IMG/VR virus record: IMGVR_UViG_3300021255_000309
Reading direction: 5' to 3' (one strand)
Source: a virus
Length of the DNA stretch: 37,750 nucleotides
In this document: piece after piece, positions 5,426 to 37,750 of the stretch
Layout: each line of letters opens with the position of its first letter
Position numbering within the stretch: the stretch's first letter is position 1
Notes under the pieces: generated by a model
Databases searched by the model: none
What the model was told of the DNA's origin: nothing
Seen by the model: only the letters and a program-made list of their open reading frames with translations
Made by a program: the position numbers and the translations under genes

Positions 5426-5524
5426 GCGTCCTCGTCCCGGGCGCTTTTATTATGGCCGGACGGCTCTGCCTTAATGAGCTGGAAGTGTTCACGCACACAA
5501 CAAAAACGGAGGAATAAAAAGACA

Positions 5525-6154
5525 ATGAAGCACAACATCTTCAACTTACAGCTTTTTGACGACGGCGGTCAGGGCGGCTCTGGTTCCCAGGGTGGAAGTA
5601 CAGCCGGAACTGGCAACGGCGGCCAGGCAGCAACGAACGCCGGAGGAAACAACGCAACAAACGGCGGCTCGTACAGCTTCCAGCAGGCTGAGGAGATTGC
5701 GAACGCAAGAGCCCAGAGAGCCGAAAAGGCTGCACTCGCTTCCTACTTCAAACAGCAGGGCATGAGCGAGGACGAAGTGGGGAAGGCAATCGCGGCATAC
5801 AAGGCCCAGCAGGCAGCAAGCAAGCCTGACGTCGACAGCATCACCAAAGAGCGCGACGATGCTCGTGCTGAGTTGGAAGCCTTGAAGAACAGCAACGCAC
5901 TCCGCGCCAAGGGAGTCAGAGAAGAGGACATTGACTATGTCATGTTCAAAGTCTCCGCTCTTATGAGCCAGGATGACAAGCTCGACTTCGAGAAGGCTGT
6001 CGCTAAGTACTTAAAAGACAACCCGCGCTTCGCGGTTGGTGGGTCCACCTACAAGGTGACGACCGGCACGAACGGGTCCAACCAGGGCAACAGCTCCGGA
6101 CAGGGCACCAACGACGCGATCAACAACGCCATCAGAAGAGCGGCACGTCACTGA
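5525..6154 (+). CDS. Capsid scaffolding protein (DUF4355-like) with an N-terminal Prp-type propeptide
   Basis: The internal ATG at 5525 with a GGAGGA RBS is preferred over the ORF-track start at 5474. MKHNIFNLQLFDDGG, then a Gly/Asn-rich linker and an Ala/Lys/Glu coiled coil. Lies immediately upstream of the capsid gene. Confidence 0.7.
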   Translation: MKHNIFNLQLFDDGGQGGSGSQGGSTAGTGNGGQAATNAGGNNATNGGSYSFQQAEEIANARAQRAEKAALASYFKQQGMSEDEVGKAIAAYKAQQAASKPDVDSITKERDDARAELEALKNSNALRAKGVREEDIDYVMFKVSALMSQDDKLDFEKAVAKYLKDNPRFAVGGSTYKVTTGTNGSNQGNSSGQGTNDAINNAIRRAARH

Positions 6155-6192
6155 TGCAAACAAACAACGATATTATACGGAGGTATAAAAAC

Positions 6193-7188
6193 ATGAGAAA
6201 GTTCAACTTACAGCTTTTTGACGATCCCACACCTGCACCGGTTAGCGATGCAACCGGAATTTTCAGAACCGACGCAGACGCCCTCATCCCTGAGGATCGT
6301 GCGAAGGAGATCATCCAGGGCACCATCGAGCAGTCTTCTGCTCTTTCCATGGGCCGCAAGCTCGCAAACATGACAGCGAAGCAGACCAAGCTCCCTGTCC
6401 TTGACTCTCTTCCTATCGCGTACTTCGTAGACGGAGACGCTGAGCAGAAGAAGACCACAACCCAGGCATGGGACAAGAAGACGATCTACGCAGAAGAGAT
6501 CGCTGTCATCGTTCCCATCCCTGAGGCAGTACTCGACGACTCCGAGTACGACATCTGGGGAGAGGTAAAGCCTCGCGTCCAGGAAGCCTTCGGCAAGGTT
6601 ATCGATGCAGCCATCTTCTTCGGAACTGGCAAGCCTACCAACTGGAGACAGGGACTTGTGCCTACAGCCGTTGCTGCTGGTGCAGTCGCTACTCTCGGAG
6701 CAAACGACAACCTCTACGACAAGATCCTCGCAGAGAACGGCGTGGTTGCAAAGGTTGAGGACTCTGGCTACTTCGTAACCGGCCACGTTGCTGACATCTC
6801 CATGAGATCTAAGCTCCGCGGATTGAAGGATCAGCAGCAGCGTCCTCTTTTCCTCAGCTCCATGCAGGCAGCTGGCAACTACACACTGGACGGCTCTGCG
6901 ATGCACTTCCCTCGCAACGGTTCCTGGGACAAGACCGAGGCCCTCATGGTTTCCGGCGACTTCTCTCAGTTAGTGTACAGCATCCGCCAGGACATCACCT
7001 TCAAGCTCTTCACCGAAGGCGTAGTACAGAACACAGACGGATCGATCGCTTACAACCTCATGCAGAACGACATGGTTGCGCTCCGTGCGGTAATGAGACT
7101 CGGCTGGGAGATCCCGAACCCTGTCAATGCGCTCAAGACCAACAAGAACCAGCGCTTCCCGTTCGCAGTTCTCAAGAGCGGATCATAA
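6193..7188 (+). CDS. Major capsid protein (HK97 fold) with an N-terminal Prp-type propeptide
   Basis: ATG at 6193 after a GGAGG RBS. The ORF-track start at 6154 has no RBS. Begins MRKFNLQLFDDPTP. About 331 aa, located after the scaffold gene. Confidence 0.8.
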   Translation: MRKFNLQLFDDPTPAPVSDATGIFRTDADALIPEDRAKEIIQGTIEQSSALSMGRKLANMTAKQTKLPVLDSLPIAYFVDGDAEQKKTTTQAWDKKTIYAEEIAVIVPIPEAVLDDSEYDIWGEVKPRVQEAFGKVIDAAIFFGTGKPTNWRQGLVPTAVAAGAVATLGANDNLYDKILAENGVVAKVEDSGYFVTGHVADISMRSKLRGLKDQQQRPLFLSSMQAAGNYTLDGSAMHFPRNGSWDKTEALMVSGDFSQLVYSIRQDITFKLFTEGVVQNTDGSIAYNLMQNDMVALRAVMRLGWEIPNPVNALKTNKNQRFPFAVLKSGS

Positions 7189-8861: not shown

Positions 8862-8863
8862 CC

Positions 8864-9436
8864 ATGAGAAAGTTCAATTTACAGCTTTTTGATGCAAGCC
8901 GTGCGGCCCTGCTCAGAAATACCATCGCCGACTATTTGAAGGTGGGCGAGGCCAATGAGCTCATGGGCACCGGCTTCACAACTCTGGACGAGAGTCCCGG
9001 AGCACAGACGGACGACGAGACCTACATCAACGAGGTGACGTCTTCCTCTGATGTTACCAGCTACAAGACCGAGTTCGGATATGAGAGCCGCCTGATCCCT
9101 TCACAGAAGGCGATCCTCGCACTCTACAAGGACGGACGCGATCACCACACCGGAGACGCAGCTCAGCACGAGTACATCCGCGTGGATCTCTTCAACCCCG
9201 TGGGCGAGCCTACGATTGATCCTCAGACCGGGCAGGTCACCGAGGCGTTCTACAAGGCCCGCAAGTTCATCGTGGCCAACGAGGTCAAGGACTTTAAGGG
9301 CGGCGGCGGTGAGAAGATCGCAGTGTCCGGAACTCTTCACGCTGTCGGCGATCCTGTACAGGGTAAGTTTGATACCGTGAGCAAGCAGTTCACAGCCGGA
9401 GACTTCACCGGCACCTATGACGACGCCAACGGCTAA
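8864..9436 (+). CDS. Major tail protein (putative) with an N-terminal Prp-type motif
   Basis: 190 aa, AGGAGG RBS. Sits between the connector genes and the chaperone/tape-measure genes and is followed by a strong terminator. Begins MRKFNLQLFDAS. Confidence 0.6.
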   Translation: MRKFNLQLFDASRAALLRNTIADYLKVGEANELMGTGFTTLDESPGAQTDDETYINEVTSSSDVTSYKTEFGYESRLIPSQKAILALYKDGRDHHTGDAAQHEYIRVDLFNPVGEPTIDPQTGQVTEAFYKARKFIVANEVKDFKGGGGEKIAVSGTLHAVGDPVQGKFDTVSKQFTAGDFTGTYDDANG

Positions 9437-9491
9437 GTCATACAAGCAACCACTGGCGACGTGCGCCTGATCATAGACAGGAAACGACCAG

Positions 9492-9531
9492 GACAGCGTC
9501 ATGCTACAGCACGGCATGGCGCTGTCTTTTT
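9492..9531 (+). terminator. Rho-independent terminator after the major tail gene
   Basis: gacagcg...cgctgtc outer stem with an inner catgc/gcatg stem, followed by TTTTT. Confidence 0.7.
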
Positions 9532-9564
9532 ATAAGTGCTGACCAGTTAGGAGGACAACAGAAT

Positions 9565-9969
9565 ATGGATTTAATTATCAACGGCGTAACACTTCAAGGC
9601 GACCTCATGGATGCAGACTTCATGGATCTTTTTGAGTCTTCGATGATCGAGATGAGAGACAAGGCTCAGGCGGCCAAAACGGCAGGCTACACCAAAGCAT
9701 CCGAACACTATCGCGCACAGTGCGAAGTGACGAACGAGTGCTTCGACAAGATCTTCGGCGAAGGTACTGCAGAGAGACTCTTCGAGGGTCGCATGAATGT
9801 GATGGAACACCTCGAAGCCATGGAGCAGGTGAACGAGTGGGCCGCATCCGAGCGCAAGCGCTTGAACGACTTCACGAACAAGTACACCCAGCGCCAGCAG
9901 GCAGCGATCAGACAGCAGCAGGCCCAGCAGTTCGTCTCGGTTAAAGGCGGGCACAAAGGCAAGCATTGA
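9565..9969 (+). CDS. Tail assembly chaperone (gpG-like, putative)
   Basis: 134 aa, acidic and helical. Position is upstream of the tape measure gene. Confidence 0.45.
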   Translation: MDLIINGVTLQGDLMDADFMDLFESSMIEMRDKAQAAKTAGYTKASEHYRAQCEVTNECFDKIFGEGTAERLFEGRMNVMEHLEAMEQVNEWAASERKRLNDFTNKYTQRQQAAIRQQQAQQFVSVKGGHKGKH

Positions 9970-10578: not shown

Positions 10579-13500
10579 GTGACGGTCATGTCAGCAGATG
10601 GCACTCTAAAATTTGACACCAGCCTGGAAACTGATGGACTACAGTCAGGCATGGGTAAGGTCGGAAGCATCGCCCAGCAGGCGCTGGGCGTGTTCACCGG
10701 CCAGATGATGACGAGAGCGGTGGACGCTCTCACAAACCTGGGGAAGTCAGCTCTCGAGAGTGTGGGCTCCCTGGAACAGAACATCGGAGGCGTTGAGACG
10801 CTCTTCGGAGACGCTGCGGATGCAGTGATCGCTTCGGCGAATAGAGCCTACGAGACGGCCGGACTCTCGGCCAATGACTACATGAGCACGGTGACGAGCT
10901 TCTCAGCTTCCCTGCTCCAGTCACTCGGAGGAGATACAGAAAAAGCGGCCCAGGTGGCAGACATGGCGATCATCGACATGTCAGACAATGCGAACAAGAT
11001 GGGCACCGACATGGGTGCGATCCAGAACGCATACCAGGGCTTCGCAAAACAAAATTATACAATGCTTGACAACTTGAAGCTGGGCTACGGCGGCACCAAG
11101 TCCGAGATGGAGCGCCTCCTGGCTGATGCTGAGAAGATCAGCGGCGTCAAGTATGACATCAGCAACCTGAACGACGTGTACCAGGCGATCCATGTGATCC
11201 AGGAAGACCTCGGCATCACTGGAACAACAGCAAAGGAAGCGTCAACGACTCTTGAGGGGTCGATGAACGCGGCCAAGGCTGCCTGGGACAACTTCATGAA
11301 CGGATCCGGCGATGCTCAGCAGCTCGCTGATGCTTTCAGCACAGCGGCCGAGAACATCGTCACCAACTTGAACGAGATCATCCCGAGACTGGCCGAGACG
11401 CTTCCGGCGCTCGTGACCACTCTGGCAGGGCAGATCCCCAGCATGGTGGCATCGATCCTTCCATCCTTAGGTCAGGCTGCTCTGACTTTGATCACAACCT
11501 TCGCGGATAATCTGACGAGCAACATCGGCTCGATCAGAGTGGCCGCATATAACGGGATCGAGAACTTCTGCAACGGACTGATCGAGGGCATCCCTCAGAT
11601 CATCCAGGGCGCCGGGACTATCGTCACCACGCTCCTGGATATAGTCAGACAGAACGCGTCCCAGCTTGTAGAGGCAGGCGTCACCATCGTGACGGAGATC
11701 GTCACCGGGATCGCATCCTTCCTTCCGGAGCTGGTCAACACCGCGATCCTGATCGTGGCCAACATCATCGAGGGGATTATAAATAGCCTGCCGCAGATCA
11801 TCGAAGCGGCGCTCAGTCTGATCAACACGATCATCGAGACGCTCCAGACGGCTCTGCCGACTTTGCTGGCGTGTGCGATCGAGGTGTTCACGGCCATCGT
11901 GGACGCGATCCCCGTCATCATCGAGATGCTCTTGCAGGCACTTCCGGATATTATCACGAACCTGATCAACTTCCTCGTCAGCGCGATCCCTCAGATCCTC
12001 GACGCGGCCATCACGATGCTGATGGCTCTGATTGAAGCGATCCCGACAATCGTCCAGGCGATAGTTGACAACCTGCCGCAGATCATCACGGCCATCATCA
12101 CGGGCATCGTGGGCGCAGTTCCTCAGCTGGCCCAGGCGGCGATCACGCTCTTCATGGCGCTGATCGATGCGATCCCTGACATCGTGGTGGCGCTGGTCGA
12201 TGCACTTCCTCAGATCATCACGGCCCTCACCACGGGCCTGATCGATGCGGTGCCGGCCATCTTTACAGCGGCCAAGGATCTGCTCTGGAATATCATCACG
12301 GCGATCCCTGAGATCGTGATCGGGCTCGGTGAAGCGGTGCCCGAGATCATCAACGGCATCGTCAACGGCCTGGCAAACGGAGCCTCGGCTCTATGGGATG
12401 CAGCCGTCAACCTCGGCAGCTCTATCCTGGGAGGCATCAAGTCCTTCTTCGGTATCAACTCGCCTTCGACCGTCATGGCAGAGCAGGGCGACTACCTCGT
12501 CCAGGGTATGCTCAACGGTCTCGAGTCGTTACCGGATAAAGCCGCCCAGGTATTTGAGGATGTACTCAACAGGGTGCTGGCGTGGGGTCAGAATATGGCC
12601 AGCCAGGCATCGACAGCGATCACCAACATGGTCAACAAGGTGATCAACATCGTCCAGACACTTCCGGGCAAGGTATGGACGCATCTGGTCAACACGATCA
12701 ACAGACTGATCCAGTGGGGCCAGCAGATGCTCTCCAATGCATCGACAGCGATGACCAACATGCTGAGCAAGATCAACTCGATCGTGCAGCAGCTTCCCGG
12801 AAAATTATGGACCCACTTCGTCAATGCAGTGAACAGGCTGATCCAGTGGGGTCAGCAGATGCTCTCCAACGCATCCACAGCCATGACGAATATGCTGAGC
12901 AGGATCAACTCGATCGTGCAGCAGCTACCGGACAAGGTATGGACGCACCTGGTCAATACAGTCAACAGGCTGATCCAGTGGGGTCAGCAGATGCTCTCCA
13001 ACGCATCCACAGCCATGACGAACATGATCAGCAGGATCATGAGCATCGTCCAGCAGCTCCCCGGAAAGATCTGGGAAGTGCTCAGCCAGGCAGCTCAGAA
13101 GGTTGTCTCCTGGGGCTCAGAGCTGGCTTCAAAGGGTGCGGCCGCGGCCAAGTCGCTCTTCGATGCGGTGGTCAACGGCTTGAAGAGCCTGCCGGACAGC
13201 ATCAAGGAGATCGGCAGCAACATCGTCCAGGGACTCTGGAACGGTATCAGCGGAGGCTGGGACTGGTTGAAGGAAAAGGTCAGCAACCTGGCCAAGAGCC
13301 TCCTGGATAGTGCGAAGAGTGCACTCGGCATCGAGTCGCCTTCCAAGGCGTTCCGCGATGAGGTCGGCAGATGGATCACTCCGGGCATCGATGAAGGTAT
13401 GGAAGAGACCATGCCGGACACTATCGACGCCATGAAGGACAGAGCCGGCGAGCTCGTCGGAGCTATGCGGGCAGAGATGAGCGCCTCAGTCGGTGGCATC

Positions 13501-13674
13501 ACCGCAAGCATGGCCGGATCCTCAGCTCACAGCATCGGCGGAGCCGGCACGACTGTCTACTACGACCAGCACATTGAGCAGGAGAACACCTACAACACGC
13601 CAGTGGCCACACCGTCCGAAGTAAGCAAGGCACAGCGCGAGGCTGCTCGCAATCTGTTTGGAGGTGTGAAATGA
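10579..13674 (+). CDS. Tape measure protein
   Basis: 1031 aa, the longest ORF. Helical and Ala/Ile/Leu-rich with internal repeats. Lies between the chaperones and Dit. Confidence 0.9.
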   Translation: MTVMSADGTLKFDTSLETDGLQSGMGKVGSIAQQALGVFTGQMMTRAVDALTNLGKSALESVGSLEQNIGGVETLFGDAADAVIASANRAYETAGLSANDYMSTVTSFSASLLQSLGGDTEKAAQVADMAIIDMSDNANKMGTDMGAIQNAYQGFAKQNYTMLDNLKLGYGGTKSEMERLLADAEKISGVKYDISNLNDVYQAIHVIQEDLGITGTTAKEASTTLEGSMNAAKAAWDNFMNGSGDAQQLADAFSTAAENIVTNLNEIIPRLAETLPALVTTLAGQIPSMVASILPSLGQAALTLITTFADNLTSNIGSIRVAAYNGIENFCNGLIEGIPQIIQGAGTIVTTLLDIVRQNASQLVEAGVTIVTEIVTGIASFLPELVNTAILIVANIIEGIINSLPQIIEAALSLINTIIETLQTALPTLLACAIEVFTAIVDAIPVIIEMLLQALPDIITNLINFLVSAIPQILDAAITMLMALIEAIPTIVQAIVDNLPQIITAIITGIVGAVPQLAQAAITLFMALIDAIPDIVVALVDALPQIITALTTGLIDAVPAIFTAAKDLLWNIITAIPEIVIGLGEAVPEIINGIVNGLANGASALWDAAVNLGSSILGGIKSFFGINSPSTVMAEQGDYLVQGMLNGLESLPDKAAQVFEDVLNRVLAWGQNMASQASTAITNMVNKVINIVQTLPGKVWTHLVNTINRLIQWGQQMLSNASTAMTNMLSKINSIVQQLPGKLWTHFVNAVNRLIQWGQQMLSNASTAMTNMLSRINSIVQQLPDKVWTHLVNTVNRLIQWGQQMLSNASTAMTNMISRIMSIVQQLPGKIWEVLSQAAQKVVSWGSELASKGAAAAKSLFDAVVNGLKSLPDSIKEIGSNIVQGLWNGISGGWDWLKEKVSNLAKSLLDSAKSALGIESPSKAFRDEVGRWITPGIDEGMEETMPDTIDAMKDRAGELVGAMRAEMSASVGGITASMAGSSAHSIGGAGTTVYYDQHIEQENTYNTPVATPSEVSKAQREAARNLFGGVK
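12583..13242 (+). repeat. Five tandem 132-bp (44-aa) repeats inside the tape measure gene
   Basis: The TGG of the WGQ motif recurs at 12583, 12715, 12847, 12979 and 13111, exactly 132 nt apart. The three middle units are near-identical (QWGQQMLSNASTAMTNML...LPGK.WTH.VN.VNRLI). Confidence 0.9.
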
Positions 13675-16704: not shown

Positions 16705-17670
16705 ATGACAATCGACATCGAAAACGGCAGACGCTTCAACGAGGAACCGCTCCTCGCGGCGGTCAGCAGCGGGGACGACATCATCCTGGTGCGACTCGCA
16801 AATGGCACCGGCGTCAAGTCCATCAAACTCGACACCATCAAGAGCTTCATCCAGGGCGACCTGTCTGAGCTCGACACAGAAGACAAGACCAGCGTGATCG
16901 CTGCGATCAACGAAGTCTTCGGACTCGCATCCGACAACGCTGACAACATTGAGATCCTTGACGGACTCATCGAGGCGCTCAAAGCGGACGGCGCTGCACG
17001 TGCGAACGCGCTCCCCTATGAGCATGACCTGGGAAATGCTCTCACAGCTGAGCAGTCCAGCGACATCAGGAGCGGCAAGTTCAAGCTCGTGAAGACCGGA
17101 GGCTACTGGACTATAAACGGCAGAAAATACTGGGCCGGTCATGCTGACTATCGTCTGCACTGCGGCGACACAGAGCTGACCACCCACCACATGCTCGTCT
17201 TCCCGGATAGATCGCTCTACAACGGAGTGATGAACGACTCCAACGTCGTGACGGGTGGATATTACGGCAGCAAGATGAAGACCTCAGGACTGGCCAATGC
17301 TCTGGCCACAATCAAGGCAGACTTCGGCGCTGACCACGTGCTTACTCACAGACAGCTGCTCACAAATGCAGCGGCCAACGGTGCAGCATCCGGCTGGGCG
17401 TGGTACGACAGCCAGATCGACCTAATGAACGAGTCCATGGTCTACGGACACGAGGCATGGAGCTCCGCTCCTGGTTACGACACCGGCATCGACAAGAGCC
17501 AGCTCGCGCTCTTCCAGGCTCGTCCTGACTTGATCACGAACAGAGAGAACTGGTGGCTCCGTGACGTCGTCTCCGCGGCGACCTTCGCGCTTGTCTACGG
17601 CGCCGGCGATGCGAGCGACTCCGGCGCGTCGGCCTCTCTCGGCGTTCGCCCCGCTTTCCTGATCTATTGA
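16705..17670 (+). CDS. Tail fibre/receptor-binding protein; DGR target 1 with a C-terminal variable lectin-like domain
   Basis: 321 aa, GGAGG RBS. Fibre-like N-terminus (TSVIAAINEV). The C-terminus WWLRDVVSAATFALVYGAGDASDSGASASLGVRPAFLIY contains VR1. Confidence 0.8.
   Translation: MTIDIENGRRFNEEPLLAAVSSGDDIILVRLANGTGVKSIKLDTIKSFIQGDLSELDTEDKTSVIAAINEVFGLASDNADNIEILDGLIEALKADGAARANALPYEHDLGNALTAEQSSDIRSGKFKLVKTGGYWTINGRKYWAGHADYRLHCGDTELTTHHMLVFPDRSLYNGVMNDSNVVTGGYYGSKMKTSGLANALATIKADFGADHVLTHRQLLTNAAANGAASGWAWYDSQIDLMNESMVYGHEAWSSAPGYDTGIDKSQLALFQARPDLITNRENWWLRDVVSAATFALVYGAGDASDSGASASLGVRPAFLIY
17567..17658 (+). repeat. DGR variable repeat 1 (VR1)
   Basis: 92 nt align with the TR at 18365-18456. 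There are 19 mismatches, all at TR adenines. Confidence 0.9.
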
Positions 17671-17679
17671 TCGAACATC

Positions 17680-17701
17680 CGCGGGGCCTCCGCGCCCCGC
17701 G
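17680..17701 (+). promoter_or_regulatory. GC-rich hairpin downstream of VR1 (candidate DGR target-recognition element)
   Basis: cgcggggc-ctccgc-gccccgcg forms an 8-bp stem with a 6-nt loop. It lies within a 29-nt block (17677-17705) that is identical to 31449-31477. Confidence 0.65.
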
Positions 17702-17730
17702 CATCAAGTAATCAAGGGAGCAGGTGAAAC

Positions 17731-18336
17731 ATGTCAGACATACCAAAGAGTGAGCGCTCTGAGTCTTCGCTGGAGACTCAGCACCTCGTCTATGCACTCA
17801 GGAGGAAGATCACGACGGAGCTGCTCACAAGTTTCGGGTACAGCGAGAAGAAGCTCGAGGAACACGTCAAGAGAGTCACGGCCTATATCAAGGACAAGGA
17901 AGAGCGAAAAGCTCGCCAGGAGATGCTCCTGGTGCTGATGCAGGACTTTTCCATGTGGCTGATCGAGGACGAGCGCGACGACATCGCTGACCTATGCAGA
18001 GAGATCAGCAGACACCTCCGGCAAGCCAACACCATCTGGCCGAACTACTACGCCGAGTATATCGAGCGACGGCTGGAGCTTGACCGCGCGAGGGAGTGCT
18101 GCAACGCTCTCCAGGATGAGCTGCAATATATCGCCGAGCAGCTTCCCGCAGATAAAAACAGATACATGGGGATCGTCCTCGACATCGAGGAGATCTACAA
18201 CAAGATCGGAGCACTGAGGCAGTCGGACAACCGCTTCCTCGACTCGCTCCCGGATGTTCCCGACGAAGTGCGCCAGCGACGCGAGAAGGAACAGGCCAAG
18301 AGTGCAAGAAGGAGAAAAAGAACAAGGAAAAGATAA
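17731..18336 (+). CDS. Putative DGR accessory protein (in the Avd position, atypical)
   Basis: 201 aa, predicted helical, with a very basic tail RQRREKEQAKSARRRKRTRKR. Occupies the slot between the target gene and the TR. No Avd motif recognised. Confidence 0.45.
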   Translation: MSDIPKSERSESSLETQHLVYALRRKITTELLTSFGYSEKKLEEHVKRVTAYIKDKEERKARQEMLLVLMQDFSMWLIEDERDDIADLCREISRHLRQANTIWPNYYAEYIERRLELDRARECCNALQDELQYIAEQLPADKNRYMGIVLDIEEIYNKIGALRQSDNRFLDSLPDVPDEVRQRREKEQAKSARRRKRTRKR

Positions 18337-18364
18337 AACCAGCGGGTGACTCCTACGCCAGCGT

Positions 18365-18456
18365 TCGTCTCCGCGACGAACTTCGCGAATGTCAACAACA
18401 ACGGCAATGCGAACAACAACAGCGCGTCGAACTCTATCGGCGTTCGCCCCGATTTC
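18365..18456 (+). repeat. DGR template repeat (TR)
   Basis: Non-coding, 28 nt after the accessory ORF stop. Contains 24 adenines. In the VR frame it reads VSATNFANVNNNGNANNNSASNSIGVRPDF (8 AAC plus 2 AAT codons). Confidence 0.9.
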
Positions 18457-18598
18457 ACAACCGTGCACCGGACATGATCCACGCACGGCAATGGGAAAGG
18501 AGGGGTCATCCCTTCCAGGTGAAGTCCTGGATAAATAAATCAACCGCAACGGGTCCAGCCACGGCTGATGGCCCTATCGTGCGGTTCTATTTTGAATT
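18457..18598 (+). ncRNA. TR-RT spacer, probable structured part of the DGR RNA
   Basis: No ORF. Inverted repeats ccgtgc/gcacgg and aaccgca/tgcggtt flank the spacer. Position corresponds to the spacer of characterised DGRs. Confidence 0.4.
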
Positions 18599-19867
18599 AT
18601 GAACAGATTAACAGATGCAAACAGGCTCTACGAGGGCGGCACCCGTGCCATGGCCGGCAGCAAGTTCAAGTACGGGACGCAACTCTTTGAAATGAACCAC
18701 CTGCTTGAGACTGCAAAGCTCCAGCGGGATCTCCTGGCCGGGACATACGAGCCAGGACCGGGGCAGAAGTTCCCCATAAGTGAGCGAGGGCATCGGCGCT
18801 ACATCACCAGCGCAAAGATGCGAGACAAGGCTCTCAACCATACGCTCTGCGACGAGGTCGTCATGCCGGCGATCGAGAAGTACGTGATCTACGACAACAG
18901 CTCCTCACAAAAAGGTCGAGGCGTCAGCTTCCACAGGAGGCGCACCGAGATCCATCTCCGGAAATACTTTCAGGAGTACGGGACGAACGAGGGCTGGGCT
19001 CTTCTCATTGACTTCTCCGGATATTATCCGAACATGCTGCACGAAACAGACAAGGCGATCCTCATGGACGTCATCCGTCGCTCCGGTTATTTCACAGAGG
19101 AGGAGCTCACCACTGCAGGGATGCTCATCAGCATGATCTTCAAGTCGATGGAGCTGGACGTCTCCCGCTTCTCAGATGAGGAGATCGAGGCGATGTACCA
19201 CCAGAAGGTTGACCCTGAGATCAATGTGGGAGTGCCTCACAGACTGCTGACCGGTGAGAAGATGCTCAAGAAAGGCGTCGACATCGGCAACCAGCTCTCA
19301 CAGGGCTCTGGTATTATCCACGCCTACGAGATCGACAACTACTGCAAGATCGTCGCCTGCTGCCATTACTACAGCAGATACACCGACGACATCCGGATAT
19401 TTCACCCGGACAAGGACTTCCTCCTGGACGTCCTGGGAAAAGTCAAGACGATCGCGGACAGGCTCGGGCTGATCATCAACGAGAAAAAGACACATGTCAC
19501 AAAGCTCAGCAGACCCTTCCGACATCTCCAGGTCAAGTACCGGCTGACGGATCAAGGCAAGGTCGAGAAGCGGATCAACCCGAAAAGCATCTCCAGAGAG
19601 CGCCGCAAGCTCAAGAAGTACAAGAAAAAGATGGACGAGGGCGTCATGCCGTACGAGGACATCGAGAACAGCTTCAAGTCATGGCTCGGCGGTCACTGGA
19701 AGCTCATGTCAATGAGACAGATCGGCAACATGGCCGACCTCTACTACCAACTATATGGAAGGAGACCAACATGGAAGAAAAAACATTCAAGATTACGCTG
19801 GCTGATGGGACAGAGCTCGAGGGCCTCACGCTCAACGGCAACAATTACATCAGCAGCAAAAAAGTGA
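18599..19867 (+). CDS. DGR-type reverse transcriptase
   Basis: 422 aa. VDIGNQLSQG matches the DGR-RT [LIV]GxxxSQ signature. YTDD catalytic motif at 19379-19390. Lies directly downstream of the TR. The 3' end overlaps the next ORF by 97 nt. Confidence 0.9.
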   Translation: MNRLTDANRLYEGGTRAMAGSKFKYGTQLFEMNHLLETAKLQRDLLAGTYEPGPGQKFPISERGHRRYITSAKMRDKALNHTLCDEVVMPAIEKYVIYDNSSSQKGRGVSFHRRRTEIHLRKYFQEYGTNEGWALLIDFSGYYPNMLHETDKAILMDVIRRSGYFTEEELTTAGMLISMIFKSMELDVSRFSDEEIEAMYHQKVDPEINVGVPHRLLTGEKMLKKGVDIGNQLSQGSGIIHAYEIDNYCKIVACCHYYSRYTDDIRIFHPDKDFLLDVLGKVKTIADRLGLIINEKKTHVTKLSRPFRHLQVKYRLTDQGKVEKRINPKSISRERRKLKKYKKKMDEGVMPYEDIENSFKSWLGGHWKLMSMRQIGNMADLYYQLYGRRPTWKKKHSRLRWLMGQSSRASRSTATITSAAKK

Positions 19868-20094
19868 CCGAGGAAGATTTCAATGCGGACAATCTGGCCA
19901 GCATCACGATCGAAGACTCTGATGGTAACGTCCAGGAGCTCACCGACATGGCGCTCGTACAGATCGAGAAGCGCGGCACGTCCTACTGGTTCGTGCTCCG
20001 TCAGCTTTCAGAGCAGGAGATCAGGGACTTCAAACTACAGGCCAACATCGAGTACATCGCAATGATGGCCGACATCGATCTGGAGGAGGTATAG
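19771..20094 (+). CDS. Hypothetical protein (in the XkdW position)
   Basis: ATG at 19771 after GGAAGGAG. 107 aa, begins MEEKTFKITLADGTELEGLTLNGNNY. Precedes the XkdX-like gene. Confidence 0.5.
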   Translation: MEEKTFKITLADGTELEGLTLNGNNYISSKKVTEEDFNADNLASITIEDSDGNVQELTDMALVQIEKRGTSYWFVLRQLSEQEIRDFKLQANIEYIAMMADIDLEEV

Positions 20095-30875: not shown

Positions 30876-31442
30876 ATGAATACATACACCAGCAAGACGC
30901 CACTGTTTGCCAGGCGCATCACCGAAGAACTCGACGAAGAGATCGGCGTGGGAGATCAGATCCGCGTCGGTAAATATACAGCCACATGTCAGAAAACGAC
31001 AAAACAGGGGGCGCTTTTTCTCCTGGATCAGTACCTTGACGAGCCTCGTCCCATGAACGAAGACGGCGAGGGCAGACCCTACGAAGAGAGCGACCTGAGG
31101 AAGTTCCTCCAGAGTGAGGAAGCTCTCAAAGAGTTCCGTCAGTACCGTGAACGCATGGCCACACATGAGAATGGCGACCTCCTCAGGATCCCGACCCTCT
31201 CGGAGATCTTCGGAGACGAGGACGCGGAGTACTTCGAGGAACTTCCCGGAGAACAGTGGGGGCTCATGAAGGATAGGAAGAACCGCATCGCCTTCCGGTG
31301 TGACGAGTGGGAGTGGGGATGGCTCCAGAATAAAAGGAAGGGCTCCGCGACGTACTTCGCGCATGTCAACATCTTCGGCAGTGCGACCAACTTCAGCGCG
31401 TCGGCCTCTCTCGGCGTTCGCCCCGCTTTCCTTATCGTTTGA
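30876..31442 (+). CDS. DGR target 2: stand-alone variable lectin-like (DUF6273-like) protein with no signal peptide
   Basis: 188 aa, AAGGAGGA RBS. The C-terminus WGWLQNKRKGSATYFAHVNIFGSATNFSASASLGVRPAFLIV contains VR2. Confidence 0.8.
   Translation: MNTYTSKTPLFARRITEELDEEIGVGDQIRVGKYTATCQKTTKQGALFLLDQYLDEPRPMNEDGEGRPYEESDLRKFLQSEEALKEFRQYRERMATHENGDLLRIPTLSEIFGDEDAEYFEELPGEQWGLMKDRKNRIAFRCDEWEWGWLQNKRKGSATYFAHVNIFGSATNFSASASLGVRPAFLIV
31343..31430 (+). repeat. DGR variable repeat 2 (VR2)
   Basis: 88 nt align with the TR at 18369-18456. There are 13 mismatches, all at TR adenines. Confidence 0.9.
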
Positions 31443-31451
31443 TCATATATC

Positions 31452-31473
31452 CGCGGGGCCTCCGCGCCCCGCG
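31452..31473 (+). promoter_or_regulatory. GC-rich hairpin downstream of VR2 (same element as 17680-17701)
   Basis: The 29-nt block 31449-31477 (atccgcggggcctccgcgccccgcgcatc) is identical to 17677-17705. Confidence 0.65.
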
Positions 31474-32002: not shown

Positions 32003-34461
32003 ACAACTCACAACAGGCGGGTGAAGTCCTTAATATATCAGACCATCACCTGCTCATCCAGAACAACGGCGAGCTCCTGATCTCCACCGGCAAGAGCCGC
32101 TTCGAGACAAAGTGGAAAAACAAGAAGATGCTCTGGTCAGCTCTTCTCGCCAAGCTCTCGAAGTCGGTCGAGACCCCGGAGACCCATGCCGAGTACATGA
32201 AAATGTCAAAGGAGCAGCAGGACAACATCAAGGACATCGGCGGCTTCGTCGGTGGCCATCTTAAAGAAGGACGACGCAAGACCGGGAACGTCCTGGCGCG
32301 TCAGATCCTCACGCTGGACTTAGACTTCCCTCCGGCGGACTTCTGGGATGCTCTCATGAACAACCTGGAGCTCGATGCTGCCATGGCAGTCTACTCCACG
32401 CACAAATACTCAGAAAAGACTCCGCGCTATCGTCTGATCATGCCGCTCGACAGAGACGTCACTCCGGACGAGTATGAGGCTATCGCCAGAAAAATCGCGG
32501 AGAAGATCGGCATCGATTACTTCGACGACTCAACCTACCAGCCGACCCGTCTCATGTACTGGCCAAGCAACAGCACCGACGTGGTTCCCTTTTTCAAGTA
32601 CTACGACGCGCCCTTCTTAAAGGCCGACGGGATCCTGGCTGAGTACCCTGACTGGACAGACACGAGCTTCTGGCCGGAGTCGTCCAGGATGACAGGCATC
32701 AGGAAGAAACAGGCGGACAAGCAAGGAGATCCTCTGGAGAAGAAGGGCATCGTGGGCGCTTTTTGCCGCACGTACACCATCCCGGAAGCGATCGCCAAGT
32801 TCCTGCCGGAGATCTACACCCCGACGGCCAAGCCCGACCGCTACACCTACGCACAGGGCTCGACTGCTGCCGGCCTTGTTGTATATGACGGCGAGACCTT
32901 CGCCTTCTCGAACCACTCAACGGATCCGGCCAGCGGGCAGCTCTGCAACGCCTTCGACCTGGTGAGGATCCACAAGTTCGGAGACCTGGATGATGGATCC
33001 GAAGACAAAAACGGAAAAGACCGGCCGAGCTTCAAGGCGATGGCCGACTACATAACAACCGAAGACGATCAGACGAAGCTCACGCTCGCCCAGGATCAGA
33101 AGGCCAAGGCCGTCCTGGACTTCGAGCAGCCGGCTCCGGAAGAGATCGACGAGGACTGGGAGACGAAGCTCTCCAGGAACGAAGACGGAGCTGTCCGGGC
33201 ACTGATCACCAACGCGGTGCTCATACTACAGAACCATCCGGCACTACAGGGGATCCGCTTCAACGAGCTCTCCGGGGCCATCGAGGTCAAGGGCAAGCTC
33301 CCCTGGAAGCGTCCGAACAAATACTGGCGAGATGCTGACGATGCTCAGCTCTACGGCTGGGTGGCTGATCAGTACGGCGTGCAGTTCCCGGAGAACAAGT
33401 TCACCAAAGCGCTCACCATCGTCGTGGACCAGCGCCGGTTCAACCCCTTGAAGGAATACCTGGCAGGGCTCCCGGAGTGGGACGGCGTGCCAAGGGTTGA
33501 CACCCTCCTGATCGATTACCTGGGAGCGGAAGACACCGCATACACCAGAGCAGTCACAAGGAAGACTTTGATCGGAGCCGTGCAGAGAGTATGGGAGCCC
33601 GGGTGCAAGTTCGACACCGTCCTGGTGCTGGATGGCAAGCCCGGCATCGGCAAGAGCACCCTGCTCCGCAAGCTCGGCGGGAAGTGGTTCAGTGACAGCC
33701 TCAGCCTGGCAGATACCAGGGACAAGACCGCGGCGGAGAAGCTGCAGGGCGTTTGGATCATGGAGATCGGAGAGATGCAGGGAACCCGCAAAGCTGACGT
33801 TGACATCATGAAGGGCTTCATCAGCAGACAGGTGGACGAGTACCGTGCGGCATACGGCCGCGTGGTCGAGAGGCATCCGAGGACTGCGATCATCTGCGGA
33901 ACCACCAACAGCACGACGGGCTTCCTCAGAGACACCACCGGCAACAGACGCTTCTGGCCGGTTCCGGTGAGCGGCGGCACCAAGTCCATCTGGGAGATGA
34001 CGGAAGCAACCAGGGCACAGATCTGGGCGGAGGCCATAGTCTATGCAACGGACGGCGAGGACAGCTTCCTCGATGCAGCCATGGAAAAGGAAGCCGAAAA
34101 GATGCAGCAGATGGCGCTGGAGTACAACGAGCGCGAAGGCGAGGTCGTGGAGTACTTAGAGACCCTGCTGCCGGAGGACTGGTACAGCTGGGATCCGGAC
34201 AAGCGTGTGGACTACTTCCAGCAGCGTGACACCCTGAGCCCTAAGGAAGCAGAGGGCACGATGAGACGCGACCGAGTGAGCCCGATGGAGATCTTCTGCG
34301 AGTGCTTCGGACGTCCAAGAAACGCTTGGAGAAGTTCGGACAGTTATGAGATCGCCAGCATCATGGCAAGGCTCCCGGAGTGGGAAAAAACAGGCAAAAG
34401 GGTCAAAATTGCGGGCTACGGACAGCAAAGACCATACACCAGGAAGTTGTCACCCTGTTAA
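31999..34461 (+). CDS. Primase/helicase (VirE-family P-loop NTPase with an N-terminal primase-like domain)
   Basis: 820 aa. Walker A LDGKPGIGKST, Walker B-like VWIMEIGEM. Size and context match the DUF2800-DUF2815-PolA module. Confidence 0.75.
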   Translation: MNNSQQAGEVLNISDHHLLIQNNGELLISTGKSRFETKWKNKKMLWSALLAKLSKSVETPETHAEYMKMSKEQQDNIKDIGGFVGGHLKEGRRKTGNVLARQILTLDLDFPPADFWDALMNNLELDAAMAVYSTHKYSEKTPRYRLIMPLDRDVTPDEYEAIARKIAEKIGIDYFDDSTYQPTRLMYWPSNSTDVVPFFKYYDAPFLKADGILAEYPDWTDTSFWPESSRMTGIRKKQADKQGDPLEKKGIVGAFCRTYTIPEAIAKFLPEIYTPTAKPDRYTYAQGSTAAGLVVYDGETFAFSNHSTDPASGQLCNAFDLVRIHKFGDLDDGSEDKNGKDRPSFKAMADYITTEDDQTKLTLAQDQKAKAVLDFEQPAPEEIDEDWETKLSRNEDGAVRALITNAVLILQNHPALQGIRFNELSGAIEVKGKLPWKRPNKYWRDADDAQLYGWVADQYGVQFPENKFTKALTIVVDQRRFNPLKEYLAGLPEWDGVPRVDTLLIDYLGAEDTAYTRAVTRKTLIGAVQRVWEPGCKFDTVLVLDGKPGIGKSTLLRKLGGKWFSDSLSLADTRDKTAAEKLQGVWIMEIGEMQGTRKADVDIMKGFISRQVDEYRAAYGRVVERHPRTAIICGTTNSTTGFLRDTTGNRRFWPVPVSGGTKSIWEMTEATRAQIWAEAIVYATDGEDSFLDAAMEKEAEKMQQMALEYNEREGEVVEYLETLLPEDWYSWDPDKRVDYFQQRDTLSPKEAEGTMRRDRVSPMEIFCECFGRPRNAWRSSDSYEIASIMARLPEWEKTGKRVKIAGYGQQRPYTRKLSPC

Positions 34462-34713
34462 GTTGTCACCCGGAGGAGGTTGTCACCCAAGCTGATGACG
34501 GTGAAGGGGTGACAACCGAAAGTTGTCACCGAGGTTGTCACCGAAGTTGTCACCCTTAAAAAACCGCATAAAACAAGGGCGCAGAGCGTGTGGGTGACAA
34601 CTTGACAACTGTTTTTTATATAACATTTGTTTTAACCCTATAAACGCGCATATTTGAGCGCCCGCGGGCGAATACGCGTATATGATGAGCAAAAATTTTT
34701 GAGGTTGTCACCC
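34446..34713. repeat. Iteron array (GTTGTCACC in 9 full copies plus 1 partial) with an AT-rich tract and GC palindromes; candidate replication origin
   Basis: Direct copies start at 34446, 34462, 34479, 34522, 34534, 34546 and 34704. Inverted GGTGACAAC copies are at 34508 and 34593, with a partial copy at 34603. AT-rich tract at 34611-34645. Palindromes cgcccgcgggcg (34659-34670) and atacgcgtat (34672-34681). Confidence 0.7.
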
Positions 34714-34726
34714 TAAGGAGGAAACA

Positions 34727-35041
34727 ATGCGAGAAAGAGACATAGAAAAATGGCTCCGGCGGCAGATCGAGAGCATGGGAGGGCTGGCCTTCAAGTTTTC
34801 GAGCCCTGGGAACGACGGAGTCCCGGATCGTCTGGCTGTACTGCCTGGTGGGATCATCTACTTCATCGAGTTGAAGACTGACAGGGGGCGGCTGTCGCCG
34901 ATCCAGAGATGGCAACAGGACAGACTTGACGCCCTGGGCGCACAGGTCAGAACGATCAAGGGCATGGACGGGGCCGCGGAGTTCATAAAGGAGGCACGGG
35001 ATGCAATTCAAAGCACACGACTATCAGAAAAGGGCCATTGA
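34727..35041 (+). CDS. VRR-NUC domain nuclease
   Basis: GVPDRLAVLPGGIIYFIELKTDRGRLSPIQ matches the VRR-NUC PD...(D/E)xK core. Confidence 0.75.
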   Translation: MRERDIEKWLRRQIESMGGLAFKFSSPGNDGVPDRLAVLPGGIIYFIELKTDRGRLSPIQRWQQDRLDALGAQVRTIKGMDGAAEFIKEARDAIQSTRLSEKGH

Positions 35042-36356
35042 TCTGGTGGTGAAGCTCCCGAAGATCGGCCTGTTCTTAGACATGGGACTCGGCAAGACGG
35101 TCATCACGATGACAGCAGTCCAGGAGCTCATGTATGACCGGTTCGAGGTCTCCAAGGTGCTGGTGATAGCACCGAAGAGAGTGGCCGAGGACACATGGAC
35201 GAGGGAGCACGCAAAGTGGGACCACCTCCGGGATCTTCGGATCAGCAAGGTCATCGGAACAGCACCACAGAGATGCAAGGCGCTGGAGCAGGACGCTGAC
35301 ATCTATGTGATCGGCAGGGACAGCGTCGTCTGGCTGGTGGAGCATTTCCAGAAGACCGGCTGGCCGTTCGACATGGTTGTGATCGATGAGCTCTCGAGCT
35401 TCAAGAACCCACAGGCGAAGAGGTTCCGGGCACTCCGGAAGGTCATGCCGCACGTGTCGAGAGTGGTGGGCCTGACCGGAACACCAAGCCCCAACGGGCT
35501 GATGGATCTCTGGGCTGAGGTCTATCTCCTGGACCGGGGCGAGAGACTGGGGCCGACACTTGGATCCTACCGGGAGAAGTACTTCCGGCCCGGAGCAAGG
35601 AACGGCTACATCGTCTACAGGTGGGAGCCCTACAGCTACAGCCAGAAGGAGATCGAGAAAAAGATCAGCGACATCTGCATCAGCATGAGCGCGGACGATT
35701 ATCTGACAATGCCGAAGAGGATCGACAACGTCATCCCGGTGCAGCTGTCAGATCAGGAGATGGAAACCTACAACCGGATGGAGCAGGAGCAGCTTCTCGT
35801 CCTGGAGGATGAGGATGATGCAGTCGTAGCCCTAAACGCTGCGGCGGTGATGACGAAGCTCTTGCAGATCGCGAACGGTTCCGTCTATACAGCAGGGCAC
35901 GACGTCCTTCGGATCCATGACGCGAAGCTCGAAGCCCTGGAGGAGATCATCGACACGACCGGGGAGCCGGTGCTGGTCTTCTACAGCTACAAGCACGACC
36001 TCGAAGCGATCCAGAAGAAGATCAAGGGAGCGAGGATCCTCGAGGGGCCCGACGACATCGCGGACTGGAATGACGGCAAGGTGCAGGTGCTCTTAGCACA
36101 TCCCGCAAGCGTCGGCTATGGCCTCAACCTACAGGACGGTGGCCACGTGATCGTATGGTACGGCCTCACCTGGAGCCTGGAGCTCTACCAGCAGGCCAAC
36201 GCCAGACTATACAGACAGGGGCAGGAGAAGCCGGTGATCATCCACCATCTGATCGCATCCGGAACGGTGGACGAGGAAGTCATGGATGCACTACAGCACA
36301 AGGACATGAGCCAGGCGGCACTCCTGGCAGCGTTAAAAGAGAGGAGAACAAGATGA
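35001..36356 (+). CDS. SNF2-family helicase
   Basis: Motif I DMGLGKT, motif II VIDELSSFKN, motif III LTGTPSPN. C-terminal helicase motifs QANARLYRQGQ. Confidence 0.9.
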   Translation: MQFKAHDYQKRAIDLVVKLPKIGLFLDMGLGKTVITMTAVQELMYDRFEVSKVLVIAPKRVAEDTWTREHAKWDHLRDLRISKVIGTAPQRCKALEQDADIYVIGRDSVVWLVEHFQKTGWPFDMVVIDELSSFKNPQAKRFRALRKVMPHVSRVVGLTGTPSPNGLMDLWAEVYLLDRGERLGPTLGSYREKYFRPGARNGYIVYRWEPYSYSQKEIEKKISDICISMSADDYLTMPKRIDNVIPVQLSDQEMETYNRMEQEQLLVLEDEDDAVVALNAAAVMTKLLQIANGSVYTAGHDVLRIHDAKLEALEEIIDTTGEPVLVFYSYKHDLEAIQKKIKGARILEGPDDIADWNDGKVQVLLAHPASVGYGLNLQDGGHVIVWYGLTWSLELYQQANARLYRQGQEKPVIIHHLIASGTVDEEVMDALQHKDMSQAALLAALKERRTR

Positions 36357-36685
36357 GGATATACATCAGCGGCCCGATCACGGGCATCCCGAACTACAGG
36401 AAGAACTTCCAGGAGGCAGTGGCCAACCTTCGCTGGCGTGGCTATGACAATCTGATCAACCCGGCCGAGATCTGCGAGGTGCTGCCTCCGGAGTTCACGA
36501 CATACGAGGAGTACATGAACGTGGCGATGGAGCTCTTGCAGATGGCTGACGCGGTCGTTCTTCTCCCAGGCTGGGAGAAGTCAACGGGATGCAACAGGGA
36601 GCTGGGCTATGCAATGGCGACCGACAAGCTGATTTTAGACTATGCGACAATACTGGAGGGAGGGGTTCAAGATGGAGCTATCTGA
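36353..36685 (+). CDS. DUF4406-like protein (nucleoside deoxyribosyltransferase-like fold)
   Basis: ATG at 36353 overlaps the SNF2 stop. MRIYISGPITGIPNYRKNF...INPAE. Confidence 0.55.
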   Translation: MRIYISGPITGIPNYRKNFQEAVANLRWRGYDNLINPAEICEVLPPEFTTYEEYMNVAMELLQMADAVVLLPGWEKSTGCNRELGYAMATDKLILDYATILEGGVQDGAI

Positions 36686-37085: not shown

Positions 37086-37750
37086 TGGAAAAGTTCAAAC
37101 TATACCGGGGCGACTGCCTTGAAATGATCAAGAACATCGAACCGGCGAGCATCGACCTCGTCCTGGCGGATCCTCCGTACTCTTCCGGAGGGACTCATGC
37201 AGGAGACAGGAAGGCGAGCACCACGGCAAAGTACACCGACAGCGACTTCAACGGAGCGGCCAAGCTCCCGCCCTTTTCCGGTGATAATATGGACCAGAGG
37301 AGCTTCACGGCCTTCATGAGATGGGTGTGCAGCGAACTCCGTCAGAAAACGAAGGAGGGGGGGATCCTCGAGATGTTCGTGGACTGGAGAAACCTCCCCG
37401 CCATGACGGATGCAGTGCAGATGGCCGGATGGGTGTGGAGAGGCATCTGCGTCTGGGACAAGGGCATCAGCAGAAACCAGCCTGGGCGCTTCCGTAACGA
37501 CTGCGAGTACGTCGTGTGGGCGTCAAACGGTGACATGCCGATCGACTGGGAAAAGGCAAAGGGCACCAAGGCCATGCCGGGAGTGTATCGGGTACCGATC
37601 GTGGCCCCGAAGCAGAGACAGCATCAGACAGAGAAGCCCGTGGAGCTCTTAGAGGGGCTTCTTGCGATAGCACCACCAGACGGCATCGTCCTGGATGCTT
37701 TCATGGGATCCGGCAGCACCGGAGTGGCCTGCATGAACACCGGCAGGAGG
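37085..37750 (+). CDS. DNA methyltransferase (N6-adenine/N4-cytosine, DPPY class), N-terminal part; continues at 1..197
   Basis: ATG at 37085 overlaps the previous TGA. IDLVLADPPYSSGG is catalytic motif IV and FMGSGST is motif I, which lies further toward the C-terminus. There is no stop before the window end, and the frame continues at nt 1. Confidence 0.85.
   Translation, partial: MEKFKLYRGDCLEMIKNIEPASIDLVLADPPYSSGGTHAGDRKASTTAKYTDSDFNGAAKLPPFSGDNMDQRSFTAFMRWVCSELRQKTKEGGILEMFVDWRNLPAMTDAVQMAGWVWRGICVWDKGISRNQPGRFRNDCEYVVWASNGDMPIDWEKAKGTKAMPGVYRVPIVAPKQRQHQTEKPVELLEGLLAIAPPDGIVLDAFMGSGSTGVACMNTGRR
37644..37750 (+). repeat. Terminal overlap copy 2 (identical to 1-107)
   Basis: Direct comparison of the window ends. 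Confidence 0.95.

Follow-up and report, generated by a model that had tools for sequence, protein, structure and literature searches.

One template repeat and two variable repeats: a diversity-generating retroelement in the genome of a temperate siphovirus

Repeats of the cassette

The virus sequence IMGVR_UViG_3300021255_000309 of IMG/VR, a stretch of 37,750 nucleotides that was analysed in full and is called the window below, carries between positions 16,705 and 19,867 a cassette that had been read as a diversity-generating retroelement (DGR) from its letters and its open reading frames (ORFs). According to this sequence-only reading, a target gene ending in a variable repeat (VR) is followed by an accessory ORF, a template repeat (TR) and the gene of a reverse transcriptase (RT). 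We re-examined the cassette and the remainder of the window by computational means. Its features are listed here together with those of a second target located outside the cassette, with IMH standing for initiation of mutagenic homing and aa for amino acids.

16705..17670, plus strand: target gene 1 at the end of the tail module, 321 aa, with a divergent C-terminal DUF6273 domain carrying VR1
17567..17658, plus strand: VR1, the mutagenised part being 17578-17638
17639..17658, plus strand: IMH-like 3' end of VR1, TCGGCGTTCGCCCCGCTTTC, GC-rich and invariant, its sole difference from the TR being a C in place of A18452
17680..17701, plus strand: GC-rich inverted repeat behind VR1, CGCGGGGC-CTCCGC-GCCCCGCG, with an 8-bp GC stem
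17731..18336, plus strand: accessory gene in the avd position, 201 aa, predicted all-helical bundle with a basic C-terminal tail
18365..18456, plus strand: TR, 92 nt (24 A, 31 C, 20 G and 17 T)
18457..18598, plus strand: structured spacer RNA between the TR and the RT gene, 142 nt
18599..19867, plus strand: DGR reverse transcriptase, 422 aa
30876..31442, plus strand: target gene 2, 188 aa, a single DUF6273 domain with VR2 at its end
31343..31430, plus strand: VR2, 88 nt, 13 mismatches to the TR, all at A
31452..31473, plus strand: GC-rich inverted repeat behind VR2, identical to the copy behind VR1

Compared base by base, the TR and VR1 align without gaps over 92 nt and differ at 19 positions, all 19 of which are TR adenines, while none of the 68 C, G or T positions is mismatched. 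The counts given in the sequence-only reading were thus reproduced. The probability that 19 randomly placed mismatches would all hit the 24 adenines among 92 positions is 1.9e-15. In the frame of the VR the TR reads VSATNFANVNNNGNANNNSASNSIGVRPDF, with eight AAC and two AAT codons, and VR1 is translated as VSAATFALVYGAGDASDSGASASLGVRPAF; both translations agree with those obtained earlier. All 24 TR adenines are at codon position 1 or 2 and consequently their substitution cannot create a stop codon. The 24th adenine, A18452, is a C in all the VR1 and VR2 copies compared and is therefore a fixed TR/VR difference. The number of mutable adenines is 23, corresponding to 4^23 = 7e13 DNA variants and 3.7e13 peptide variants, which corrects the earlier estimate of approximately 20 mutable adenines and a repertoire of 4^20. 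The GC-rich end of VR1 (17639-17658) did not vary in any genome compared and, by analogy, may act as an IMH. We also considered the last four A sites as fixed IMH differences on the basis of substitutions shared by VR1 and VR2, but this was rejected because 18430, 18431 and 18436 vary in populations, which leaves A18452 as the single fixed site.

A repeat search of the whole window, scanned on both strands, led to the identification of VR2 and of no further TR/VR copy beyond the TR, VR1 and VR2. All the mismatches of VR2 to the TR are again at TR adenines (13/13, P = 2.1e-9), and mismatches at non-A template positions were found neither in VR1 nor in VR2. The target with VR1 recognised in the sequence-only reading is therefore retained, but the picture of a single target is not, the second one with VR2 lying 13 kb away in the replication module. 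The sequence common to VR1 and VR2 runs approximately 47 nt past the repeat and includes the GC-rich hairpin. The copy at 17680-17701 (DNA fold of -13.1 kcal/mol, z = -3.0) has no equivalent after the TR, and a GC stem of 6-9 bp with a different sequence is present at the equivalent place in 16 of the 16 related loci checked. A fixed TR/VR difference and a GC inverted repeat found at the VRs only are features of an IMH and would, by analogy, have their role in homing. An intrinsic terminator was also considered for the VR1 hairpin and set aside, the hairpin being without a T-run and a terminator scan having made no call.

Variation among near-identical genomes and the reverse transcriptase

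We compared the window with 12 near-identical loci from other metagenomes, 10 of which encode an identical accessory protein, the other two being RT relatives from IMG/VR (L013 and L019). The counts below refer to these 13 genomes, window included, aligned over 6.6 kb. The TR carries no substitution in 12 out of 12 loci and none of its 92 sites is polymorphic. VR1, on the other hand, differs from that of the window at 13-17 positions per genome, always at positions templated by a TR adenine, so that 12 distinct VR1 variants are found among the 13 genomes and 23 of the 24 A sites but 0 of the 68 non-A sites are polymorphic. One locus (L003) differs from the window by 16 substitutions in 6,606 nt and all 16 are inside VR1; another (L011) has 17, with 16 inside VR1. 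VR2 behaves in the same way: in four genomes that are otherwise free of substitutions over the aligned 4.4-5.5 kb it shows 14-18 differences, all at TR-A positions, and it is polymorphic at 21 of the 24 A sites and at no non-A site. The share of polymorphic sites is 32% in VR1 versus 0% in the TR (no site), 1.5% in the IMH and hairpin, 2.5% in the accessory gene (15 sites) and 6.5% in the RT gene (83 sites). The protein sequences give the same picture: among 15 cluster members of the protein collection, each of the 13 A-containing codons has 2-11 alleles. The population is decisively not monomorphic at the A-templated sites, as it would be under the last of the objections raised in the sequence-only reading. 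Since genomes that are the same outside the VRs carry another VR1 or VR2, diversification outpaces background substitution in this clone, and the element has clearly diversified both targets in nature.

Two other observations were made in these alignments. Outside VR1, target gene 1 (16705-17566) has 16% polymorphic sites versus 2.5-6.5% in the neighbouring genes, which suggests allele exchange or selection beyond the action of the DGR. In addition, one contig with a deleted RT gene (compared as L012 for the cassette and L066 for the second target) has the same VR2 as the window at all 13 mutated sites despite 60 substitutions in the flanking 5.5 kb, and a VR1 that differs from that of the window. 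This VR2 is either an old frozen allele or the product of recombination.

The 422-aa ORF carries both motifs reported in the sequence-only reading, IGNQLSQ at residues 229-235 (19283-19303) and YTDD at residues 261-264 (19379-19390). In a search of the PDB its best match, and the only clear one to an RT, is the RT of Bordetella phage BPP-1 (bRT, 8ub7_A, E = 3.3e-11), the next RT being the group II GsI-IIC RT with an E-value of 0.013. BLASTP against the bRT of the BPP-1 record aligned residues 1-364, N-terminal extension included (E = 2e-14), with IGNQLSQ facing IGSLTSQ and YTDD facing YMDD. The comparison with profile hidden Markov models that had been proposed as a check gave matches to Pfam RVT_1 and PHROG 1423, the models of group II, retron and defence RTs matching weakly. 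An A-biased TR/VR pair in the same layout was found in 38 out of 48 viral contigs whose RTs are 47-99% identical, several of the remaining 10 having too short an upstream sequence to contain a VR or a TR. Together, these sequence comparisons support the assignment of the RT to the DGR type as a relative of the BPP-1 enzyme.

Two relatives have an in-gene deletion in the RT gene, covering window positions 19000-19136 in L008 and 19260-19550 in L012, where IGNQLSQ and YTDD are lost. These natural variants indicate that the DGR is sometimes lost in this lineage. The ORF that follows (19681-20094) overlaps the 3' end of the RT gene by up to 97 nt if its start is the ATG at 19771; gene callers place this start at 19864 when the RT gene is intact and at the ATG when it is deleted.

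The interpretation as a DGR is therefore supported by the adenine-only TR/VR pattern, the RT match, the population variation and the gene order, the succession of target, accessory ORF, TR and RT being, as had been stated, that of mtd, bbp7 (avd), TR and brt in the BPP-1 record. We conclude with high confidence that the locus is a functional DGR, with one template and two targets, of a temperate siphovirus whose complete genome is contained in the window.

RNA structure around the template and the two targets

Folding of the TR with its flanks gave an 11-bp long-range helix that brackets the TR, and several further elements are present in the spacer.

18344..18354, plus strand: 5' strand of the long-range helix, GGGUGACUCCU, pairing with 18501-18511
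18461-18488, plus strand: spacer stem-loop just 3' of the TR
18495-18498, plus strand: GAAA of the spacer, pairing with the TR 3' end UUUC (18453-18456), putative primer:template duplex
18501-18511, plus strand: 3' strand of the long-range helix, in the spacer
18514-18531, plus strand: second spacer stem-loop, behind the long-range helix and followed by AUAAAUAAAU
18542-18586, plus strand: 3' domain of the spacer, 13 pairs with compensatory changes

The spacer is conserved among relatives with RTs 47-99% identical and the RNA fold of the region has a z-score of -4.0. Across 24 distinct relatives 97% of the cells of the long-range helix are paired, a value that is inflated because the search for the 5' strand in the relatives relied in part on complementarity (a match of at least 9/11 in a 140-nt window). 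Compensatory changes are found at 7 of the 11 pairs, the score of the helix was reached by 0 of 500 shuffles and shifted registers are approximately 60% paired. Both spacer stem-loops are retained with differing sequences in 14 loci, and compensatory changes in the UUUC/GAAA pairing occur in a few relatives, the clearest being L056. A TTTCA/TGGGA register obtained from the minimum free energy fold of the single sequence was set aside, covariation favouring TTTC/GAAA, which is itself putative. A local hairpin of GGAAAGGA with TCCCTTCC, proposed by RNAalifold for the spacer alone, was dropped in favour of the long-range helix, which has compensatory changes. Rfam gave no match in 17600-18700 at E <= 1. 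The RNA elements of the BPP-1 ribonucleoprotein have been described by cryo-EM (bioRxiv 10.1101/2023.10.23.563531), and the elements found here have counterparts among them: the template:primer duplex, the stem-loop that directly follows the TR, and the cPRT Stop duplex, which is accompanied by a neighbouring stem-loop and adenosines. By analogy, cDNA synthesis might be primed from A18498 and take A18452 as its first template position.

Target gene 1 follows genes for SPP1_Dit, Sipho_Gp37 and a virion structural protein, and the lysis genes lie beyond the cassette, which is thus placed between target 1 and the lysis genes. Its product matches Pfam DUF6273 with an E-value of 5e-4 and 20.4 bits, under the cut-off of 23.5 bits, and within its family the domain is matched by 29 of 30 members (best E = 8e-7). 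DUF6273 is known from gut phages as a C-type-lectin-like domain on which the variable regions of DGRs are displayed (PMC10743442, PMC11792537). The earlier designation as a tail fibre is sustained by the position at the end of the tail module and not by homology, as no tail-fibre similarity was found in Pfam, PHROG or PDB; the family profile matched nothing in the PDB and hhalign detected no similarity to Mtd. The AlphaFold2 (AF2) model from an alignment of 30 sequences at least 70% identical was unusable, with a mean confidence (pLDDT) of 38, and did not confirm the fold. By its position and by analogy, target 1 is probably a receptor-binding protein.

The product of target gene 2 exceeds the same DUF6273 cut-off (25.6 versus 23.5 bits), matches PHROG 21980 with an E-value of 6e-32 and is 45% identical to target 1 across the last 60 residues. 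The gene starts 11 nt past the family-A DNA polymerase gene and is upstream of the gene of a VapE-type primase-helicase, a slot that it also occupies in phage Fontainebleau (see below) and in relatives at 57-65% identity; a scan of viral contigs with the single protein gave one locus only. Inspection of the N-terminus by eye showed no signal peptide or membrane segment. Target 2 has diversified in nature as intensely as the tail-module target. Tentatively, and against what we consider the likelier outcome, it may be an early-expressed, cytoplasmic and hypervariable binding protein instead of a virion receptor-binding protein. If so, it could track variable intracellular or cell-envelope host factors, such as defence proteins or superinfection-related targets.

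The window ends with an exact 107-nt direct repeat of its beginning (1-107 = 37644-37750) and therefore holds a complete genome of 37,643 bp that is circular or has terminal redundancy. Over the 5.5 kb compared, the window is identical to a contig of 37,698 bp from ERZ12302814. The genome encodes terminase, capsid, tape measure, Dit and Sipho_Gp37 proteins, a GH25 endolysin, a large serine recombinase and a replication module, and the phage is a temperate siphovirus. A host search in species-representative genomes returned only relatives of at most 62% identity, in metagenome-assembled genome bins of several phyla that are probably mis-binned.

Outside the cassette, an N-terminal peptide with FNLQLFD is common to three structural genes, being encoded at 5519-5560 in a scaffold-like ORF, at 6193-6222 in the capsid gene, whose true start is probably 6193, and at 8864-8893 in ORF 8864..9436. 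The 30-nt DNA segments 6192-6221 and 8863-8892 are 97% identical, and the repeated peptide could be a shared processing or translation-start signal. The tape-measure gene (10579..13674) contains 132-nt tandem repeats with sub-repeats of 36-72 nt at 11884-13074, and similar 132-nt repeats are present in Fontainebleau.

Alternative readings and related systems

Two other explanations of the locus were weighed against that of a functional DGR. In one of them the RT belongs to another kind of retroelement, such as a retron, a group II intron or a defence RT, and the TR and VR are an ordinary duplicated coding sequence that diverges by mutation or gene conversion. Searches of NCBIfam and PADLOC do return group II, Drt, retron and Abi models, the group II, Drt and retron ones at E-values of 1e-5 to 1e-12, but these matches reach 17-45 bits where the cut-offs are 200-550 bits and nearly all of them cover the palm motifs only, whereas bRT aligns along its whole length with the N-terminal extension. 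Rfam yielded no intron RNA, msr/msd or other match. Moreover, the mismatches are confined to the adenines of one copy both in the three-way comparison and in the population, a pattern that ordinary divergence cannot yield, and this explanation is already effectively refuted, with next to no probability left to it. The other explanation is that of a fossil: the DGR was once active in the lineage, the copy in the window no longer diversifies and the VR differences are inherited standing variation. It would account for the relatives with in-gene RT deletions and for the VR2 that the window shares with an RT-deleted genome across 60 flank substitutions, which indicates that some VR alleles are long-lived. 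Against it, the RT ORF, TR, spacer RNA, IMH-like ends and both hairpins of the window are intact, and the genomes that differ from it solely in VR1 or VR2 show diversification to be faster than background substitution in this very clone. We therefore consider a fossil element very improbable.

Several points nevertheless weigh against a functional DGR with the components proposed here. The evidence for activity is variation between samples among near-identical genomes, from which activity of this very genome copy is presumed, and the natural variants with RT-gene deletions show that the function gets lost in the lineage. The accessory protein is without sequence similarity to Avd and its predicted fold matches have poor E-values. 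The pairing percentage of the long-range helix is raised by the method used to locate its 5' strand; the strand is still always found at the same GGG-anchored position beside the TR. Finally, the C-type-lectin fold suggested for target 1 rests on a sub-threshold DUF6273 match and on the literature, with an AF2 model of pLDDT 38.

Avd is a basic, pentameric four-helix bundle of the PF05635 family. The accessory ORF of the cassette stands in the avd position, as the sequence-only reading had implied, and an identity as Avd is not borne out by sequence and is weakly favoured by the predicted fold. The protein has no sequence match in Pfam, NCBIfam, PHROG, PADLOC or PDB. It belongs to a family of at least 186 unannotated homologues of approximately 175-200 aa, none with a Pfam domain, whose profile finds nothing in the PDB and is aligned to bAvd by hhalign with a probability of 0.1%; neither sequence nor profile is similar to Avd or PF05635. 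The AF2 model (pLDDT 81.7), in contrast, has Avd-family bundles as its highest-probability matches in the PDB (2rld and 2gsc, probability 0.96-1.0) and an 'Avd-like protein' in BFVD (probability 1.0, TM-score of 0.83 normalised to the target), the E-values of the matches to the Avd family being 0.035 to 1.5. We read the protein as a divergent, enlarged Avd-like cofactor. It might instead represent a distinct, undescribed class of DGR accessory protein that is not homologous to Avd, in which case RT partner and RNA binding would be unlike those of BPP-1. The absence of similarity, the greater length (approximately 175-200 versus 128 aa) and the size of the unannotated family would be in keeping with this, and Wu et al. 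describe Avd-less DGR lineages and other accessory classes (PMC5758913). The same study reports that Avd genes are themselves very poorly conserved. Further arguments against a distinct class are the position of the gene, the Avd-family four-helix bundles that come out with top probability from both structure libraries, the presence here of counterparts of those BPP-1 RNA elements with which Avd and bRT are in contact, and the charge of the family, whose mean isoelectric point of 8.3 is basic like that of Avd (the window protein combines an acidic core with a strongly basic tail). The known class CH1 was rejected in the same way, CH1 proteins being acidic (isoelectric point 4.7) and found in Bacteroides. 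We regard a distinct class as an unlikely explanation, and an Avd-like cofactor is retained in the mechanism below.

By analogy, RT-dependent, adenine-mutagenic cDNA synthesis and retrohoming would proceed here as follows. A transcript running from the end of the accessory gene through the TR and across the 142-nt spacer would fold into a scaffold in which the long-range helix brackets the TR, with the stem-loops and, behind the helix, the 3' domain. The RT, probably together with the helical accessory protein, would bind this RNA and copy the TR into cDNA from near the TR 3' end, probably self-primed at GAAA 18495-18498 paired with UUUC 18453-18456. Random nucleotides would be placed opposite the 23 template adenines, and the cDNA would replace the homologous VR at either site, each being marked by an IMH-like GC-rich end and the same GC hairpin. 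Each VR could in this way give approximately 4e13 possible peptides and never a stop codon. The analogy with BPP-1 is also the source of what we propose on the priming nucleotide, on homing, on the part played by the accessory protein and on receptor binding by target 1.

The likeness to the mtd-avd-TR-brt cassette of BPP-1 extends to gene order and strand. In both, the target gene ends in a VR that differs from the TR in an adenine-only pattern, and the GC-rich IMH-like end, in which a TR/VR difference is fixed, precedes a GC inverted repeat (IMH/IMH*, PMC5758913). The spacer between TR and RT gene measures 142 nt here and 144 nt in BPP-1, the RTs align over their full length with the IGxxxSQ and YxDD motifs, and behind the long-range duplex around the TR come a stem-loop and an A-rich tract, an arrangement resembling the cPRT Stop element. 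In contrast, the two RTs are only 22% identical, that of the window being longer at the C-terminus (422 versus 328 aa) and carrying approximately 65 additional aa at residues 150-215. Likewise, no sequence similarity could be detected between the accessory protein and bAvd, target 1 is not similar to Mtd and has a DUF6273 domain instead, a second target is present at a distance of 13 kb, and the TR is 92 nt long versus 134 nt in BPP-1.

In the INPHARED/GenBank collection searched, the closest phage is Acutalibacter phage Fontainebleau (ON453893.1, L002), with 74.6% nucleotide identity over 38% of the cassette region. It is a prophage of Acutalibacter muris from the OMM12 mouse consortium (PMC10197239). 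The two phages are syntenic across the whole genome, and Fontainebleau has the same TR at approximately 35106-35192, with VR1 closing the coding sequence (CDS) 33554..34489 and VR2 closing CDS 9330..9899, which immediately follows the DNA polymerase I gene. The two phages also have in common the accessory gene, the RT, the hairpins and the spacer RNA, the cassette of Fontainebleau spanning 33554-36376. Fontainebleau is a different phage at the species level, its VR1 has one non-A mismatch, and contig names suggest that the samples of the window phage are rumen metagenomes. Its DGR is not annotated in ON453893.1, where the RT is named and the rest is 'hypothetical', and is not mentioned in the paper describing the phage (PMC10197239). 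The TR is overlapped by CDS 35085..35339, a probably spurious gene for an 84-aa 'hypothetical protein'. The small target of Fontainebleau belongs to a protein cluster of 1,220 member sequences, a size consistent with heavy diversification; several of the listed members are fragments of 81-84 aa.

DGRs with two targets have been reported in the Faecalibacterium prophages Lelie and CP11 (PMC11792537) and in the gut phages nd4 and nd12 (PMC10743442). As in the window, one TR serves two VRs, both targets contain DUF6273 with the VR at the C-terminal end of this domain, and one target is large and the other small. These phages belong to other lineages (nd4 and nd12 are myoviruses). In nd4 and nd12, moreover, both targets lie within the cassette and the VR of target 1 is near its 5' end, whereas the small target of the window is remote and occupies a conserved slot between DNA polymerase and primase-helicase. 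Since two-target phage DGRs acting on DUF6273 proteins are already published (PMC10743442, PMC11792537), the present system is a further example of a known arrangement.

What the window adds is a clean, complete and naturally active two-target DGR in siphoviruses of gut and rumen, a poorly studied group with a cultured relative in Fontainebleau. As Fontainebleau is an inducible prophage of the tractable OMM12 model and carries the same DGR, the system is open to experimental study. The accessory family, with its at least 186 members, is invisible to Avd profiles, and tools that need an Avd match will under-annotate cassettes of this kind. The covariation extends the RNA architecture known from BPP-1 cryo-EM, i.e. 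the duplex bracketing the TR, the stem-loop with its A-rich tract and the pairing of the TR 3' end with the spacer, to a distant lineage of Bacillota phages. Finally, the conservation of a small, heavily diversified target in the replication module raises the question of what phages diversify besides their receptor-binding proteins.

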